A stretch of DNA of 64,000 nucleotides from Escherichia phage OLB35: sequence record MH992122.1; one strand, 5' to 3'. Made by a program: the position numbers and the translations under genes. Shown piece by piece: positions 48,623 to 60,232 of this stretch. The first letter of the stretch is position 1. Every line of letters starts with the position of its first letter. The notes beneath the pieces were generated by a model. It was not told the DNA's origin. It ran no database searches and saw only the letters and a program-made list of their open reading frames with translations.

Positions 48623-48919
48623 TTATTGTTCTACCCATGAACAAGAGACTTCAAAATCAGGACCACCGTATTCCCAGTGATATTCACCAACAGGAATCCA
48701 GTCACCGTGCTCGTTTTCTTCATAGTCCTCAGGCTCAAGGCCAACGAATCGCCATTGGACACCGATGATTCGATTACCCATCATTACTCGAAATTCGCCC
48801 CATGGATTATCGATAGCATACTGAATATCGTTCTTGGCACGAGAGCACATTTCTTGATATAATAAAGCTTCTAATTCACCCTGGTCATAAGGGCCAGGGA
48901 AAGTTAAATCAATACTCAT
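48623..48919 (-). CDS. hypothetical protein
   Basis: 98-aa ORF. Confidence 0.5.
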   Translation of the reverse strand: MSIDLTFPGPYDQGELEALLYQEMCSRAKNDIQYAIDNPWGEFRVMMGNRIIGVQWRFVGLEPEDYEENEHGDWIPVGEYHWEYGGPDFEVSCSWVEQ

Positions 48920-49179
48920 TTAAAATATTCTCGTAGTTGGTCAAATCCACCAATGTGACTTCCGTCAGGAGCAAACACTTGAGGCATAGTCAATCCAACT
49001 TGTGATTCACGTCCAAGCTTAACCAGAAGCTCAGCAATTTTCTCATCGTCGAACACACCTTTTTCCGGCATAACATTAATGAATTCGAATGGCTGTTTCT
49101 TAACAGTCAGCAATCGTTTCGCATTATCACAATAAATGCATTTATGAATAGTAGAGTCATACCCGTACACTTTAAACAT
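48916..49179 (-). CDS. nrdC: thioredoxin/glutaredoxin NrdC
   Basis: ORF trimmed to ATG at 49177-49179 (MFKVYGYDSTIHKCIYCDNAKRLL...), 87 aa as in T4. Confidence 0.9.
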   Translation of the reverse strand: MFKVYGYDSTIHKCIYCDNAKRLLTVKKQPFEFINVMPEKGVFDDEKIAELLVKLGRESQVGLTMPQVFAPDGSHIGGFDQLREYFK

Positions 49180-53987: not shown

Positions 53988-54968
53988 TTATTTCAGTAAA
54001 GTTACTTCAGAGATTTCCTCCCAACCATCTTTATCAGTTGAAATAAAATCTGCTACATAAAGAGCCGTACGTAATGATACATTGCGAAGACGAGATACGT
54101 TAGCCTTCATCCAGGACAATGCTTTGTACGTTTCAGCATCAGTCAAGCCACGTTTCTGCATCATGTCAGTAGATAATATTACATCTTCAACTCGAACCAT
54201 AATCTCTTCATTAGAGTGTACTCCAAGGTCCAAATACACTGAACGAGATACTAAAGCTTGAAGGTGTGGAGCAAGTTTCGAACCGCGTTCTAACTCTTTA
54301 TCAATATCAACGTTTGTAATGAAAACGATAGTACCTTCAAACTCAAATTCTTTATCGATACCCTTATCATCGAGATAAGATGACGCAGTGCTCCAGCAAA
54401 CTTTGCGTTTATCACCAGTATCTAATGCTGCTTTAAGAAGGTTCAAGATGTCCATATCCGAGAATACGTCAACGTCGTCGATTAAGAGAACGCTGTCTGC
54501 ATCACGGTTGAGCCAAAGTTGTTCGTAAAGGCCAATACCAGAGATTTTACCATTAATGCTTTTGTATTTGATGAAACCGTTATCATTAGCATTATTAAGT
54601 GCTTTATCCAGAGAATACGTCTTACCAATACCGGCTGCACCTGAAATAATGAGTGAACGAATTTTGCCATCGATAATACCATTCGTCATCATGTTCATTA
54701 CTTTAAAGCGTTTGTTGATACGAGTTTTCATATCTTCAGTGCTTTCAACAACTGCAACTGGTGATGTCTCAACTCCTTCCATTACGATGTCTGATTTGAA
54801 GACCCATACTCCACGTTCAGAACCATCAATCATAACGAAAATTTTACCGTCACCTAAGTGGGAACATTCAGGATTAAGCTTTGCCGGGAACCATGTCTTT
54901 GTGGCAACATAAGAACCAGAGATTTCGTTATTACGATAGATACCTTTTTTGATTTGAACGTTGAACAT
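53988..54968 (-). CDS. P-loop ATPase (AAA-like) with N-terminal extra domain
   Basis: ORF trimmed to ATG at 54966-54968 with GGAGAATAAA RBS; Walker A GAAGIGKTY, Walker B LLIDDVD. Confidence 0.6.
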   Translation of the reverse strand: MFNVQIKKGIYRNNEISGSYVATKTWFPAKLNPECSHLGDGKIFVMIDGSERGVWVFKSDIVMEGVETSPVAVVESTEDMKTRINKRFKVMNMMTNGIIDGKIRSLIISGAAGIGKTYSLDKALNNANDNGFIKYKSINGKISGIGLYEQLWLNRDADSVLLIDDVDVFSDMDILNLLKAALDTGDKRKVCWSTASSYLDDKGIDKEFEFEGTIVFITNVDIDKELERGSKLAPHLQALVSRSVYLDLGVHSNEEIMVRVEDVILSTDMMQKRGLTDAETYKALSWMKANVSRLRNVSLRTALYVADFISTDKDGWEEISEVTLLK

Positions 54969-55007
54969 TTTATTCTCCAAATTTACTCATTTCGTTTCGA
55001 TAGGTCT

Positions 55008-55038: not shown

Positions 55039-55257
55039 TTATTTGCGACGAGATTTTTTGGTAAGAGGTTGAAAGAACACTGCTTTACCGGCAGGAGTCA
55101 AAGTGACTCGTAATGCATTACCGATTCCCAAGGATGCTTTAACCAGACCTTTAGATTTCAGTTCACCGAATGCTTGACGTTGGTCTGCATTACGAGTGTT
55201 AACCATAAGACCTTTATCACCAGCTTCACGAATCATTTCTAGCATTTTGGTTTTCAT
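55039..55257 (-). CDS. small basic protein, possible DNA-binding
   Basis: ORF trimmed to ATG at 55255-55257 (MKTKMLEMIREAG...) with GAGGAG RBS; the listed longer start would include the promoter. Confidence 0.5.
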   Translation of the reverse strand: MKTKMLEMIREAGDKGLMVNTRNADQRQAFGELKSKGLVKASLGIGNALRVTLTPAGKAVFFQPLTKKSRRK

Positions 55258-55288
55258 TTTGTTTTCTCCTCTTGTTTTGATAGGTCCT

Positions 55289-55317
55289 ATAATAACATAT
55301 CCTAAAAGCATGTACAC
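55289..55317 (-). promoter_or_regulatory. T4-type early promoter
   Basis: -35 GTGTAC (55312-55317), 17-bp spacer, -10 TATTAT (55289-55294). Confidence 0.45.
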
Positions 55318-55363
55318 TACTTTTTAAAAATATTTTGACCCCTAAAGGGCCCGAAGGCCCTTA

Positions 55364-56353
55364 TCATTTATAGTATGAATTATGATTTTCGAGATAGACT
55401 TGCTCAAGGAAATCATCCCAGAAACTCATATCTACCTTTTGTTGCATACCGTTCTTAGCGGCTTGTTCTGACGCGTGTTCAACTTGGTCAACGATATCTT
55501 CTAGGAATTCTTGTACAGTTTTAAACGTATGTTTACCAAGCTTAACATCGAGAATAAATGGAGCATCCTGAAGTGGGTAAACCAGGTCGCCGGTTTTGTA
55601 AATTTCCAATAATTGAAGTCCACCACGACACGCATGACTCAATGCTTTCCAGTCAATACCTTCATTGGCTTCTGCCTTACGAGCACGTTCACCATAGTTC
55701 TCTTCCAGTTTAACCAGGATGGCATTGAACTCTTTATTGGTTAACGTGTCTTGGAATTTACGGTCTAACAGATTATAGAATGTTTGCTTACCTGTTTTCT
55801 CGTTTTCGGTTTCAACCCACGAAGCAAATTCACCTATAGGCAGAACATTCTTCATATGTGATAAACGAATTACTGCACCGTTATCAAAGTATTGTCCCCA
55901 TTCATTAGAACGTTTAAGGGCTTGACGAAGAACAGCCAGTCGAGAACCCTTGACGCCATATTTAGAAGCTTGCTTACGGACATACCCTAAATAAGATTTC
56001 ATGTTAGTGGTATAGAAACGAGACCTGTTATCTTGAATATACTTCCATACATCAGGCAAATCAGATTTAACTACTAGACTTGGTGGAGTGTGAAGCATAT
56101 CTAATGCGACGGTTTCACCATCAGCAGCTAGTTTAAAGAAATATTTGAGACTATACAACTCATGGTCCACGTCGTCTTTTGTGTTCTTAGAAGATGTGTT
56201 ATTCGTGTTCTTGCTCATATGTTCTTTAACGTTACCGGTCAAGATATCACGAGCATGAGGGACATAAATTTCTTTAAAATCGACGTCAGATTCAGGAGTA
56301 GACGTTCCATAAAGGTGGCTACCAAAGTAGCCTTTCATAATTGTTTTCATCAT
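55364..56353 (-). CDS. Pol-beta-superfamily nucleotidyltransferase-fold protein
   Basis: 329 aa; N-terminal GSHLYGTSTPESDVD matches the GS-x(9-13)-D-h-D NTase motif; UUCG-type hairpin directly downstream (55345-55362). Confidence 0.55.
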   Translation of the reverse strand: MMKTIMKGYFGSHLYGTSTPESDVDFKEIYVPHARDILTGNVKEHMSKNTNNTSSKNTKDDVDHELYSLKYFFKLAADGETVALDMLHTPPSLVVKSDLPDVWKYIQDNRSRFYTTNMKSYLGYVRKQASKYGVKGSRLAVLRQALKRSNEWGQYFDNGAVIRLSHMKNVLPIGEFASWVETENEKTGKQTFYNLLDRKFQDTLTNKEFNAILVKLEENYGERARKAEANEGIDWKALSHACRGGLQLLEIYKTGDLVYPLQDAPFILDVKLGKHTFKTVQEFLEDIVDQVEHASEQAAKNGMQQKVDMSFWDDFLEQVYLENHNSYYK

Positions 56354-56823
56354 TTAGCCTTATATTCAAGAGTAGGACAGACTTTTTCTTTACGAGCTTT
56401 AAGGTATTCACCTATTAATGATTTCTTACGTTCAATAGGCTCAAGTCCATTTTTAATTCGTTCTTGGTTTTGTGCAATGAGCTCAACTTCTTTATAATAC
56501 TTCCGCTCTCTGTATAAGTCGATTAGCCACGGTATGCCTAATACTAAAACTATAGAAATACCAACACATAATGCAATGAATAAAACACCTACACCAATTG
56601 AGGCCGGAACCAATGTCCATAAACTACTAAAGACAAAGAATTTAGTTAAAATTTCCTGGCCAACGATTGTGGCCGCTGCTAAAATCGCAAATCCAATAAT
56701 CGAAACAAACAATACCGGGAGAAACGTTTTCCAAAAATAAGCACACAACGTTTTCGGACGATTCCATGTACTATTAAACGCGGCATAAATTTTAAAGTGC
56801 CAAGAGTTTTCATTGATAATCAT
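56350..56823 (-). CDS. hypothetical membrane protein
   Basis: 157 aa with about three TM segments. Confidence 0.5.
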   Translation of the reverse strand: MIINENSWHFKIYAAFNSTWNRPKTLCAYFWKTFLPVLFVSIIGFAILAAATIVGQEILTKFFVFSSLWTLVPASIGVGVLFIALCVGISIVLVLGIPWLIDLYRERKYYKEVELIAQNQERIKNGLEPIERKKSLIGEYLKARKEKVCPTLEYKAK

Positions 56824-56832
56824 AATAATTCC

Positions 56833-57363
56833 TTATTTCAAAGTTGGGATAATAGAATCGAGATAAGCTTTAAGAGCAACTGCTTCATCTTTGTCTAATG
56901 TAACGATATGTTGACGAAGGTCATCAATTTGACGAATAACTACAACATCGCCATCTTCATAAGAAGGATTAACGCCTAGGACCGTTGTATAGTCAGGGCG
57001 GTCCTGATTTGTAATAAAAGCATTACGGCATTTAGCCCATTGAAGTTTGGCCTTTTTGGCTGTTTCAGATTCCATTAATTCTTTCACCTTAGTGACGAAT
57101 GTTTTCCAATTATTAATAGAAAGGCATTCATCTTCTGTTTCGATATTAACCCCACTATAAAGACCGTGATAAAAACGAACTTGAAGGTCTTCATCGATGT
57201 TAATTACAGATGCATGGCCGGGCGGATTGAGTTTCAAAATCTTGTCCAGTTCCATAGGAAGAATAGTAACAGAATCATCTTCTTGTGTCAGAACATACAC
57301 ATAACCACGTTTTTCGATACATAAATCGCCAAACAACTCGGTTGTTTCAATTACAGTTTTCAT
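56833..57363 (-). CDS. hypothetical protein
   Basis: ORF 56833-57375 (TTG) trimmed to ATG at 57361-57363. Confidence 0.5.
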   Translation of the reverse strand: MKTVIETTELFGDLCIEKRGYVYVLTQEDDSVTILPMELDKILKLNPPGHASVINIDEDLQVRFYHGLYSGVNIETEDECLSINNWKTFVTKVKELMESETAKKAKLQWAKCRNAFITNQDRPDYTTVLGVNPSYEDGDVVVIRQIDDLRQHIVTLDKDEAVALKAYLDSIIPTLK

Positions 57364-57708
57364 ATTATTCACCAATTAAAGTTTCAACAAAATTCACCAA
57401 ATCATTCAGACAAGCATCAACCTGTTTTTCATAAAAGTCTTCGTTATCATTTACTGCATGATAAGCTACATCATTCAAATCTGAATCGGCTTCACGTAAG
57501 TTACGGATAAGTTCCATCAATTTATTAGCTTGTTCACGGGTCATTTTACCATACTCGTTTCAATAAGATTCACTATGCCGTTTACCATGTTATAAGTAAA
57601 CATCGGATAATTGTATTGTACTACAACATAAGCGATAAGCAAAAGTTTCATTTTGTTCTCCGTTCGTTTTGGTAGGACTACTATAACATAATCCTACCAA
57701 GATGTAAA

Positions 57709-58206: not shown

Positions 58207-58509
58207 TTAGATAGATGTAGACTCTAATTTTATTTTCATGAACTCGGCAAATTGTTTGGCAGTTTTTATGCCTTGTTCATGACATTCAAATGCATCATCA
58301 CAGGGGCTATTTTTGTAATGCTTTGCCATATACTTATAGAATTTTTCAGAGTTCTCGACATTTTGAATTTCAAACAAAGTATATACGTTTTTAATCCCTG
58401 ATTCCATAAAGTTATCAAAGTATGGGTCAACATATGCAGTACCAACGATAGGAGTTGTTGCTGCAAAAAACCCAAGCATCGCCATGACAGCTATCGCTCT
58501 TAAGGCCAT
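58207..58509 (-). CDS. rI: lysis-inhibition protein RI (antiholin)
   Basis: 100 aa with signal-anchor; ...VDPYFDNFMESGIKNVYTLFE...KNSPCDDAFEC... matches T4 RI. Confidence 0.8.
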   Translation of the reverse strand: MALRAIAVMAMLGFFAATTPIVGTAYVDPYFDNFMESGIKNVYTLFEIQNVENSEKFYKYMAKHYKNSPCDDAFECHEQGIKTAKQFAEFMKIKLESTSI

Positions 58510-59535: not shown

Positions 59536-59753
59536 TTAGGTTCACCTTCTTTAATGAAATCCGGATAAGGATTAAATCCAGAATAAAATCCTTCACCTTT
59601 ATGATTGCTACAACCCTTGTTCGAGCAATAGCACCAATAATCAAAATCACAAGCCATTTCGTCATTGCATAGAGCAAATACTACAGGCCATTCACATTTT
59701 TCACATTTAGCACCTGTAAGAATTTTTGTTTGGCTCATAACAATGGTTCCCAA
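59532..59753 (-). CDS. Cys-rich small protein
   Basis: 73 aa with multiple Cys pairs. Confidence 0.45.
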   Translation of the reverse strand: MGTIVMSQTKILTGAKCEKCEWPVVFALCNDEMACDFDYWCYCSNKGCSNHKGEGFYSGFNPYPDFIKEGEPK

Positions 59754-60232
59754 TCAACAATCACAATTTCTAGTTTAGTGGAATACGTATCTAAAATCTC
59801 TTCGATGACATCCCAGTTTCCGCCACCGATACCTGCACCAATTCTTGGCATATAAATTACAGGCTTTGTTATCTTATTCTTTCCGAATTCATTTAATTCT
59901 ATTATACAATTCATTAAAGCAGGGTACTCAAAATTAGGTCCCGGCTCAAACTGTGTATAAAGATTAAAGCAATAAGCTTTATGGGTCTTAAAATATTTTT
60001 CATAAACCGAATAAGTCCCGAGTTTAGACTCGTCTCCGAATTCGGTTTGAAGTTTATCTGCTTCCAGAATTTTTGGATAAGCCTTTGCCAATTGACCTGC
60101 TACACCGGCACCCATTGTATGAAAACAATTGCACCCATGAGCAATATTATTACCTTTAGAAAACAGGGCGACAATATCGCCCTTGATATAGTTTTTAATC
60201 ACTTGCTGCAAGTCCTCTAGTATAAGAGTCAA
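59735..60232 (-). CDS. macro-domain protein (ADP-ribose binding/hydrolase-like)
   Basis: 165 aa; ...NIAHGCNCFHTMGAGVAGQLAKAYP... and ...GAGIGGGNW... resemble macrodomain motifs. Confidence 0.6.
   Translation of the reverse strand: MTLILEDLQQVIKNYIKGDIVALFSKGNNIAHGCNCFHTMGAGVAGQLAKAYPKILEADKLQTEFGDESKLGTYSVYEKYFKTHKAYCFNLYTQFEPGPNFEYPALMNCIIELNEFGKNKITKPVIYMPRIGAGIGGGNWDVIEEILDTYSTKLEIVIVDWEPLL

Follow-up and report, generated by a model that had tools for sequence, protein, structure and literature searches.

RlaP proteins and tRNA repair

The repair of tRNA by Pnk and Rnl1 of phage T4 is a textbook example of phage counter-defence, through a pathway of the 1987 era. The anticodon nuclease RloC, a relative of PrrC, excises the wobble nucleotide, and this lesion has been proposed to defeat repair by T4 Pnk and Rnl1 (PMC2610378). 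RlaP, a family of its own in Pfam clan CL0260 (PMC10400998), owes its name to linkage with RNA ligase genes and, according to passages in two papers, was predicted in 2016 to restore the nucleotides lost from cleaved RNAs before ligation (PMC7824862, PMC6514570). In jumbo phages the distribution of RlaP mirrors that of RNA ligases, and its predicted role is the undoing of RloC-type excision (PMC7824862). The present analysis concerns a gene of this family, the counterpart of nrdC.11 of T4 by sequence comparison, in a stretch of 64,000 nucleotides from Escherichia phage OLB35 (MH992122.1). The whole of this stretch is referred to as the window.

The biochemistry of the family has been described for two Pseudomonas RlaPs, from P. 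fluorescens and P. aeruginosa, which are encoded between rtcB and rtcA (Carruthers, Fatma, Huang, bioRxiv, December 2025, PMC12776372). Among E. coli macromolecules these enzymes label only RNA, and neither protein nor DNA. They need a 3'-OH, add one or two nucleoside monophosphates (NMP) with little base specificity, also accept dATP, and favour Mn2+ as well as, in an annealed mimic of cleaved tRNA, the 5' half. Moreover, a tRNA missing one anticodon-loop nucleotide partly regains aminoacylation through their activity (PMC12776372). The crystal structure of PfRlaP consists of an N-terminal nucleotidyltransferase (NTase) domain and a C-terminal helical domain, which together form a cleft, with the terminal helix packed back on the NTase domain. 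In the same study, T4 NrdC.11 was placed in cluster 5 of the sequence similarity network (SSN) of the RlaP family and designated "of unknown function" (PMC12776372).

The long-form RlaP of OLB35 and the repair-gene context of its clade

On the sequence evidence presented below, the OLB35 gene is assigned as the Mosigvirus ortholog of T4 nrdC.11, and its product as a long-form RlaP of the DNA polymerase beta (Pol-beta) superfamily. Neither the gene nor its family nor the proposed role is new; all are known from the literature and from some GenBank annotations, one record labeling the protein "RNA repair pathway DNA polymerase beta". The initial annotation of the window, made from the sequence alone, had placed an open reading frame (ORF) at 55364-56353 and described its product as an NTase-fold protein of unknown role. 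The ORF was recovered exactly there on the minus strand, with a product of 329 amino acids (aa), or 328 aa if the second of two adjacent ATG codons is the start; both lengths are in use in public records. As regards the role, the annotation still holds for the phage protein's own activity, but not for the family, which is the named RlaP family with a T4 ortholog and a predicted function in RNA repair. The protein begins with MMKTIMKGYFGSHLYGTSTPESDVDF, where G11-S12 is followed by nine residues and then by S22-D23-V24-D25. The codons were checked by hand on the raw sequence (S22 at 56288-56290; D23-V24-D25 as GAC GTC GAT at 56279-56287), and the GS-x9-SDVD motif reported in the annotation proved to be correctly read.

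Family membership was established by a Pfam match to PF10127 RlaP ("RNA repair pathway DNA polymerase beta family"; E=8.4e-13, 49 bits, gathering cut-off 23), which joins aa 7-152 of the protein to profile positions 23-148 of 249. No other Pfam family scored better than E=0.05. The protein also gave a full-length match to PHROG 388 nucleotidyltransferase (2.7e-126). Relatives were collected by an exhaustive search of 1.84 billion representatives at 50% identity. They amounted to 3215 protein clusters at 50% identity with E<=1e-3, 742 of them with E<=1e-30, and nearly all of the 150 best listed cluster matches were full-length proteins of approximately 300-390 aa. The precomputed Pfam label of the cluster members is likewise PF10127, a family matched by 85 of the 86 relatives (34-52% identical to the OLB35 protein) that were aligned for the analysis of conservation. 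In this alignment G11, S12, G16, S22, D23, D25, Y132, K236, R243 and G273 are invariant, while D61, D63, D85, K131, R138, D234, W235 and H240 are conserved in at least 90% of the sequences. Given that G11, S12, G16, S22, D23 and D25 are invariant in the relatives, that a Pfam NTase family is matched above threshold and that the relatives are widely spread, the GS-x9-SDVD motif is not a chance occurrence.

Alignment with hhalign to canonical RlaPs of 255 aa was significant over aa 3-91 (94.4% probability). D23, D25 and D63 fall on the canonical RlaP Asp triad, the GS turn aligns as well, and D85 falls on a conserved Glu. For the C-terminal half the probability was 0.2%; a collinear K...R helix is suggestive there, and homology is not claimed. 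Like the canonical family of the Pseudomonas rtcB-rlaP-rtcA loci, the OLB35 protein unites PF10127 membership, GS turn and Asp triad, to which an association of its clade with RNA-repair genes is added below. Canonical RlaPs have approximately 250 aa; the OLB35 protein is about 70 residues longer, and a loop rich in Ser, Asn and Thr (aa 48-60) and a three-stranded beta insert (aa 177-201) are additional in it. In addition, NrdC.11 belongs to SSN cluster 5 and canonical RlaP to cluster 1a.

The structure predicted by AlphaFold2 on the 86-sequence alignment had a predicted local distance difference test (pLDDT) score of 94.5 and a predicted template modeling (pTM) score of 0.86. The N-terminal part of the model is an alpha/beta NTase core (strands 3-10, 24-31, 45-49 and 62-68), followed by connecting helices, the beta insert and a five-helix C-terminal domain, in which a conserved helix start reads D234-W235-K236-x3-H240-A241-x-R243 (nt 55625-55654). 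The succession of NTase core and helical domain resembles the two-domain layout of the PfRlaP crystal structure (PMC12776372), although the C-terminal alignment is not significant. In a Foldseek search of a PDB set that apparently lacks the PfRlaP structure, nothing scored below E=1e-3, the best matches, all weaker, being the kanamycin NTase ANT(4'), the uncharacterized NTase-like 3c18 and Hailong HalB; sequence searches of it with the single protein and with the 86-sequence profile gave no match. No cGAS, DncV, OAS or CCA-adding enzyme was among the fold matches listed. A search of predicted viral structures (BFVD) showed the full-length fold to be shared by numerous phage "nucleotidyltransferases", by giant-virus proteins and by HE65 proteins of baculoviruses. 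The NTase fold proposed in the initial annotation is thus borne out by the model and by structural neighbors sharing the NTase core, and the acidic triad is intact by alignment with the canonical one. The giant-virus matches include nucleotidyltransferases of Klosneuvirus, Terrestrivirus and Yasminevirus, and some BFVD matches form part of longer fusion proteins that bear the annotation exonuclease or endonuclease V. Active HEPN nucleases carry the motif Rx4-6H; a HEPN RNase role for the C-terminal domain was considered and rejected, as the conserved motif here is K236-x3-H240-x2-R243.

The gene context of the clade was studied in 80 contigs from bacterial and archaeal assemblies (mostly metagenome-assembled genomes, MAGs; a few may be viral), each with a full-length relative that is 33-52% identical. 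Seventy of the contigs were usable, and neighbors were determined by crude ORF calling, clustering, Pfam searches on recurrent clusters and phmmer counts. A canonical short RlaP (PF10127, E=1e-77) was present in 15 of these 70 loci, RtcB in 6, Ro/TROVE in 4, the Pnkp ligase domain in 3-4 and RtcA in 2. A non-RlaP RNA-repair gene (RtcB, RtcA, Ro, Pnkp, or T4-type Pnk plus Rnl1) was located within 6 kb in 13/70 loci, which is far above chance for genes occurring approximately once per genome. For example, a Nitrosospira locus (L030) contains RtcR-like, Ro, RtcB, RtcA, long RlaP, short RlaP and a Hen1-like ORF, RtcR and Hen1 being recognized by eye only, while another locus (L055) contains Pnkp, long RlaP, short RlaP and Macro. 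The clearest local linkage of the long-form clade to T4-type repair enzymes is found on a 4-kb contig (L009, 62-3803), where long RlaP, a T4-type Pnk (1e-51 to RB69 PseT) and an Rnl1-like ligase (3e-18) lie on one strand, separated by one other gene each. Although it was binned with a Bathyarchaeota MAG, this piece of DNA probably derives from a phage.

Enough downstream sequence was present in 64 loci, and our analysis also revealed that in 13 of these the canonical short RlaP of approximately 255 aa is encoded directly downstream of the long form and in the same orientation. The pairs include L030 (6004-7746), L055 (6001-7802), L010, L025, L041, L059, L068, L075, L077 and L083. The gap between the two genes ranges from -20 to +44 nt in all pairs except one, often with an overlap of 1-20 nt. 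Such an arrangement suggests a two-RlaP module, whose members would be non-redundant or heteromeric. The tandem is not mentioned in the RlaP preprint (PMC12776372).

Proposed function and its alternatives

Our preferred explanation, which we hold with moderate confidence, is that the OLB35 protein is an RlaP-family RNA 3'-end nucleotidyltransferase accessory to the phage Pnk/Rnl tRNA repair, refilling the nucleotides removed by anticodon nucleases before ligation. D23, D25 and D63 would hold two divalent metals, probably Mn2+, together with an NTP, and the enzyme would transfer one or two NMPs, untemplated, to the 3'-OH of a broken RNA. The likeliest substrate would be the 5' half left when a tRNA is cut in its anticodon loop, and this RNA would be accommodated in a cleft that the NTase domain forms with a conserved basic face of the C-terminal domain (K131, R138, K236 and R243). 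NrdC.11 would in this way complement the phage PseT (polynucleotide kinase/phosphatase), Rnl1 and Rnl2, encoded elsewhere in the genome. Once the nucleotides removed by host anticodon nucleases, e.g., RloC, were replaced, ligation would yield a usable tRNA. RloC is proposed to beat Pnk/Rnl1 repair by removing a nucleotide, and a phage-encoded RlaP would be the counter-move. If NrdC.11 has this activity, the pathway gains a third enzyme, and the arms race with PrrC and RloC could be tested with one deletion mutant. With respect to the partners, genes for Rnl2, Pnk and RnlA are present in RB69 as well as in the closest genome (MK373778.1), at a distance of 55-85 kb from the nrdC.11 homologue. 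The chemistry is borrowed from Pseudomonas RlaPs of another subcluster, and we infer the substrate, the Pnk/Rnl partnership and the role in phage counter-defence. The initial annotation had left three options, namely that the protein could make or mimic a nucleotide signal, modify protein or modify RNA, and it is the last that is supported by the RlaP family and the Pseudomonas chemistry.

A number of observations weigh against this proposal. Transfer of NMP has been demonstrated only for the two Pseudomonas RlaPs, which lie outside the NrdC.11-type subcluster, and its extension to the phage protein is by analogy. The RlaP profile covers only aa 7-152, and the C-terminal 175 residues are without significant alignment, so substrate specificity could differ; the geometry of triad and cleft is likewise a prediction, made from secondary structure and the alignment. 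The long form of bacteria is often found beside the canonical short RlaP and does not replace it, which suggests that the two forms are not redundant. Furthermore, the window contains one RlaP gene and no Pnk or RNA-ligase gene, and an RNA ligase was located within 6 kb of the homologue in only 2/79 viral loci. Finally, the region nrdC.11-mobD.3 was deleted in genome-reduced T4 mutant populations and is apparently dispensable on laboratory hosts (PMC9825161), so the role of nrdC.11 would be conditional, if any.

It may also be that the long form is a functionally distinct second RlaP class, working as a heteromer or on different ends or nucleotides, and that T4-like phages have kept this form alone as the missing third activity of the Pnk/Rnl1 pathway. 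We offer this extension tentatively and consider it doubtful as it stands; it is based on the coupled position of the long form upstream of the short RlaP and on the C-terminal halves that could not be aligned. A heteromer could be modeled on kanamycin-NTase-type enzymes, which build active sites across a dimer. If the long form does provide the third activity, a T4-like phage could reverse the wobble-nucleotide excision of the RloC type.

Other activities on RNA, on proteins or on free nucleotides were weighed against the refilling of cleaved tRNA. Tailing or mending of RNA 3' ends outside the anticodon loop, either at damaged tRNA 3'-CCA ends or on host or phage mRNA or small RNA with an effect on RNA stability, is in our view unlikely. 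It would be in keeping with the labeling by RlaPs of full-length tRNA- and rRNA-sized RNA plus fragments, with little NTP specificity (PMC12776372). The distinct C-terminal half and the long-short tandem suggest a division of labor, and tailing might explain the side-by-side long and short RlaPs of bacteria. Ligase genes also show no local linkage in T4-like phages. Nevertheless, no Pfam CCA-adding or poly(A) polymerase family (PF01743 PolyA_pol) was matched at E<=0.1, and no such enzyme was among the fold matches. T4 tRNAs without an encoded CCA mature via the host cca enzyme, which weighs against an efficient CCA adder in the phage. Moreover, the annealed cleaved-tRNA mimic was labeled at the anticodon-loop end in preference to the 3' terminus (PMC12776372). 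Nucleotidylylation of a protein or a small molecule, resembling the AMPylation by MntA, the type VII antitoxin that neutralizes HEPN RNase toxins, or the reaction of aminoglycoside and lincosamide NTases, by which the phage would inactivate a toxin or defence protein of its host, appears improbable. The MntA equivalog NF047752, with a cut-off of 60, scored only 12.9 bits and matched no more than the GS turn (aa 9-26), and no adjacent HEPN toxin was found, the neighbors of the gene being a membrane protein and a small ORF. The RNA-only labeling by Pseudomonas RlaPs (PMC12776372), the RlaP family and the RNA-repair gene context also favor RNA as the target over protein or small molecules.

A signaling or signal-mimicking NTase, producing a cyclic or linear oligonucleotide whose effect would be to trigger, sponge or mimic an immune second messenger of the host, has very little probability. 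An example could be an oligodeoxyadenylate that keeps the Hailong HalA channel closed, and the sole support for it is the generic similarity of the core to HalB, an oligodeoxyadenylate-synthesizing defence NTase (PDB 9dbh). In this comparison 121 residues align with 17% identity, whereas HalB has 217 aa without a long C-terminal domain and differs from the OLB35 protein in gene context and family. The Pol-beta/minimal-NTase signature, which the initial annotation had related to cGAS/DncV-like and 2'-5'-oligoadenylate-type enzymes, is real as a motif, but it does not point to signaling, because the GS...DxD pattern is common to the whole Pol-beta superfamily. With CD-NTases of the cGAS/DncV type and with OAS the protein shares only the superfamily-wide GS ... 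[DE]x[DE] ... [DE] signature, and profile and fold matches to them were absent. No CD-NTase, SMODS, OAS1_C or Mab21 family of Pfam was matched at E<=0.1, and no PADLOC model at E<=1 (v2.0, 2023, which predates Hailong and does not cover HalB). The family is also that of RlaP, whose cellular members occur in RNA-repair operons and not in defence-signaling operons. The suggestion that the protein makes or mimics a nucleotide signal thus found no support in Pfam or PADLOC, and the idea of a signaling enzyme can probably be dropped. That the protein is catalytically inactive or vestigial, serving as a scaffold or binder, is hardly credible. Such a fate would agree with the dispensability of nrdC.11 in T4 on laboratory hosts (PMC9825161), yet the catalytic residues are invariant or nearly so in hundreds of clusters with only 34-52% identity, and the gene has persisted throughout Straboviridae and in jumbo phages.

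Phage distribution, hairpin and neighboring genes

At the DNA level the gene is 99.1% identical to that of Escherichia phage vB_EcoM_WFbE185 (Mosigvirus, RB69-like Tevenvirinae), where it is annotated as "putative nucleotidyltransferase". Relatives were detected by tblastn in 1540 phage records, with aa identities of approximately 79% in T4-type phages, 64-69% in the listed Klebsiella, Salmonella, Enterobacter and Yersinia phages, approximately 50% in Aeromonas and Acinetobacter phages, and approximately 29% in Vibrio Schizotequatrovirus and the jumbo Agrobacterium phage Atu_ph07. The gene is thus kept across Straboviridae and is present in jumbo phages. The context is uninformative in two distant phages, Vibrio V07 and Agrobacterium Atu_ph07, where the neighbors of the homologue are unannotated. 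T4 NrdC.11 ("putative 38.9 kDa protein") is a counterpart in both position and sequence. The early-region order nrdC ... nrdC.10 - nrdC.11 - (mobD) ... rI - tk is shared, and a UUCG hairpin lies in the same place, while OLB35 differs from T4-type phages in carrying the Mosigvirus (RB69-like) allele. The name nrdC.11 is used in records that follow the T4 nomenclature, i.e., those of VR7, RB16 and Acj9. Many GenBank and UniRef records name the protein "thioredoxin", among them those of Shigella phages JK42 and JK36 and of Escherichia phage mobillu as well as several UniRef names. No thioredoxin domain was found in the protein by the Pfam search, and the label is a propagated misannotation. As a guess, it arose when the T4 locus name nrdC.11 was carried into product names, or when a neighboring annotation was picked up.

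The coordinates of the gene, its predicted domains and the landmarks around it are collected in Table 1. The location of the gene between nrdC and rI, as well as the presence of a hairpin of its own, had been proposed in the initial annotation, and both were found to be accurate.

Table 1. Features of the nrdC.11 locus in the OLB35 window
Feature	Position	Strand	Basis
NrdC.11-type (long-form) RlaP nucleotidyltransferase coding sequence (CDS)	55364..56353	-	ORF list; stop TGA 55364-55366
GS turn (NTP-binding) and first two metal-binding carboxylates, G11-S12-x9-S22-D23-V24-D25	56279..56323	-	sequence reading; predicted roles
D61-V62-D63, with D63 as the inferred third catalytic carboxylate, start of strand 62-68	56165..56173	-	conservation, hhalign, AlphaFold2
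Pol-beta NTase domain and first helices, aa 1-155 (RlaP-matching part)	55889..56353	-	Pfam, hhalign, AlphaFold2
Three-stranded beta insert, aa 177-201 (E177-184, E188-195, E198-201)	55751..55825	-	AlphaFold2; outside the Pfam match
C-terminal five-helix domain, aa 206-328	55370..55738	-	AlphaFold2
Hairpin AAGGGCC-UUCG-GGCCCUU	55345..55362	-	terminator scan; fold -13.8 kcal/mol
Membrane-protein gene upstream, PHROG 944 (6.9e-52)	56350..56823	-	stop overlaps CDS start (ATGA)
nrdC	48916-49179	-	thioredoxin-domain PHROG, 1.8e-17
rI	58207-58509	-	lysis-inhibition PHROG, 7e-31

The hairpin begins one base past the TGA stop and is annotated as a putative terminator in the closest record (MK373778.1). 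It may be a terminator or an mRNA-stabilizing stem-loop. Closer Tevenvirinae relatives have a hairpin at the same position with the UUCG loop kept and stems that differ with compensation, i.e., covary. In T4-type relatives a U-run is added, and the element looks like an intrinsic terminator; in the OLB35 window this U-run is degenerate, and thus termination may be weak. Of 70 related viral loci, 30% have a stem-loop with a folding energy of <= -10 kcal/mol within 45 nt past the stop, vs 9% of random windows.

Upstream, the first ATG of the CDS overlaps the stop codon of the PHROG 944 membrane-protein gene as ATGA and the second as TGATG. Because of the ATGA overlap, the two genes are probably co-transcribed and translationally coupled. 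A scan for sigma-70 promoters returned 18 sites vs 18.6 in shuffled sequence, and in view of this lack of excess no promoter was assigned to the gene. The other genes of the region are the usual T4-like early set, i.e., the NrdC.10-like P-loop protein, PHROG 944, the y05I-like protein, rI, tk and the macro-domain protein. Of the 79 viral loci, 43 have a PHROG 944 membrane protein no more than 6 kb from the homologue, and in 35 a NrdC.10-like protein is syntenic with nrdC.11. The NrdC.10-like, membrane and y05I-like proteins showed no co-travel with the homologue in the cellular genomes tested. Being syntenic only within T4-like phages, all three were dropped as candidate parts of the system.

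The NrdC.10-like protein has 330 aa (53988-54980, minus strand) and a P-loop GAAGIGKT; it belongs to PHROG 1250 (function unknown), and its AAA/STAND matches are weak and sub-threshold. The y05I-like putative transcription factor (56833-57375, minus strand; T4_y05I_N 8e-41, T4_y05I_C 1.4e-19) is encoded two genes upstream of nrdC.11, within one tightly packed gene string. Near tk, a macro-domain protein (59735-60232, minus strand) matched the macro gene of L055 (7813-8277) in phmmer with 1.5e-12. That bacterial gene ends the operon Pnkp - long RlaP - short RlaP - Macro, and in 39/79 viral loci the nrdC.11 homologue has a macro-domain gene at a distance of 6 kb or less. The link may reflect the disposal of ADP-ribose-phosphate by-products that arise in RNA repair, or plain T4 synteny. 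Downstream of the hairpin, a small ORF (55039-55317, minus strand) matches PHROG 6001 (function unknown). In the closest record it has 72 aa and starts from an internal MKTKML, and the 92-aa version with a GTG start is probably too long.

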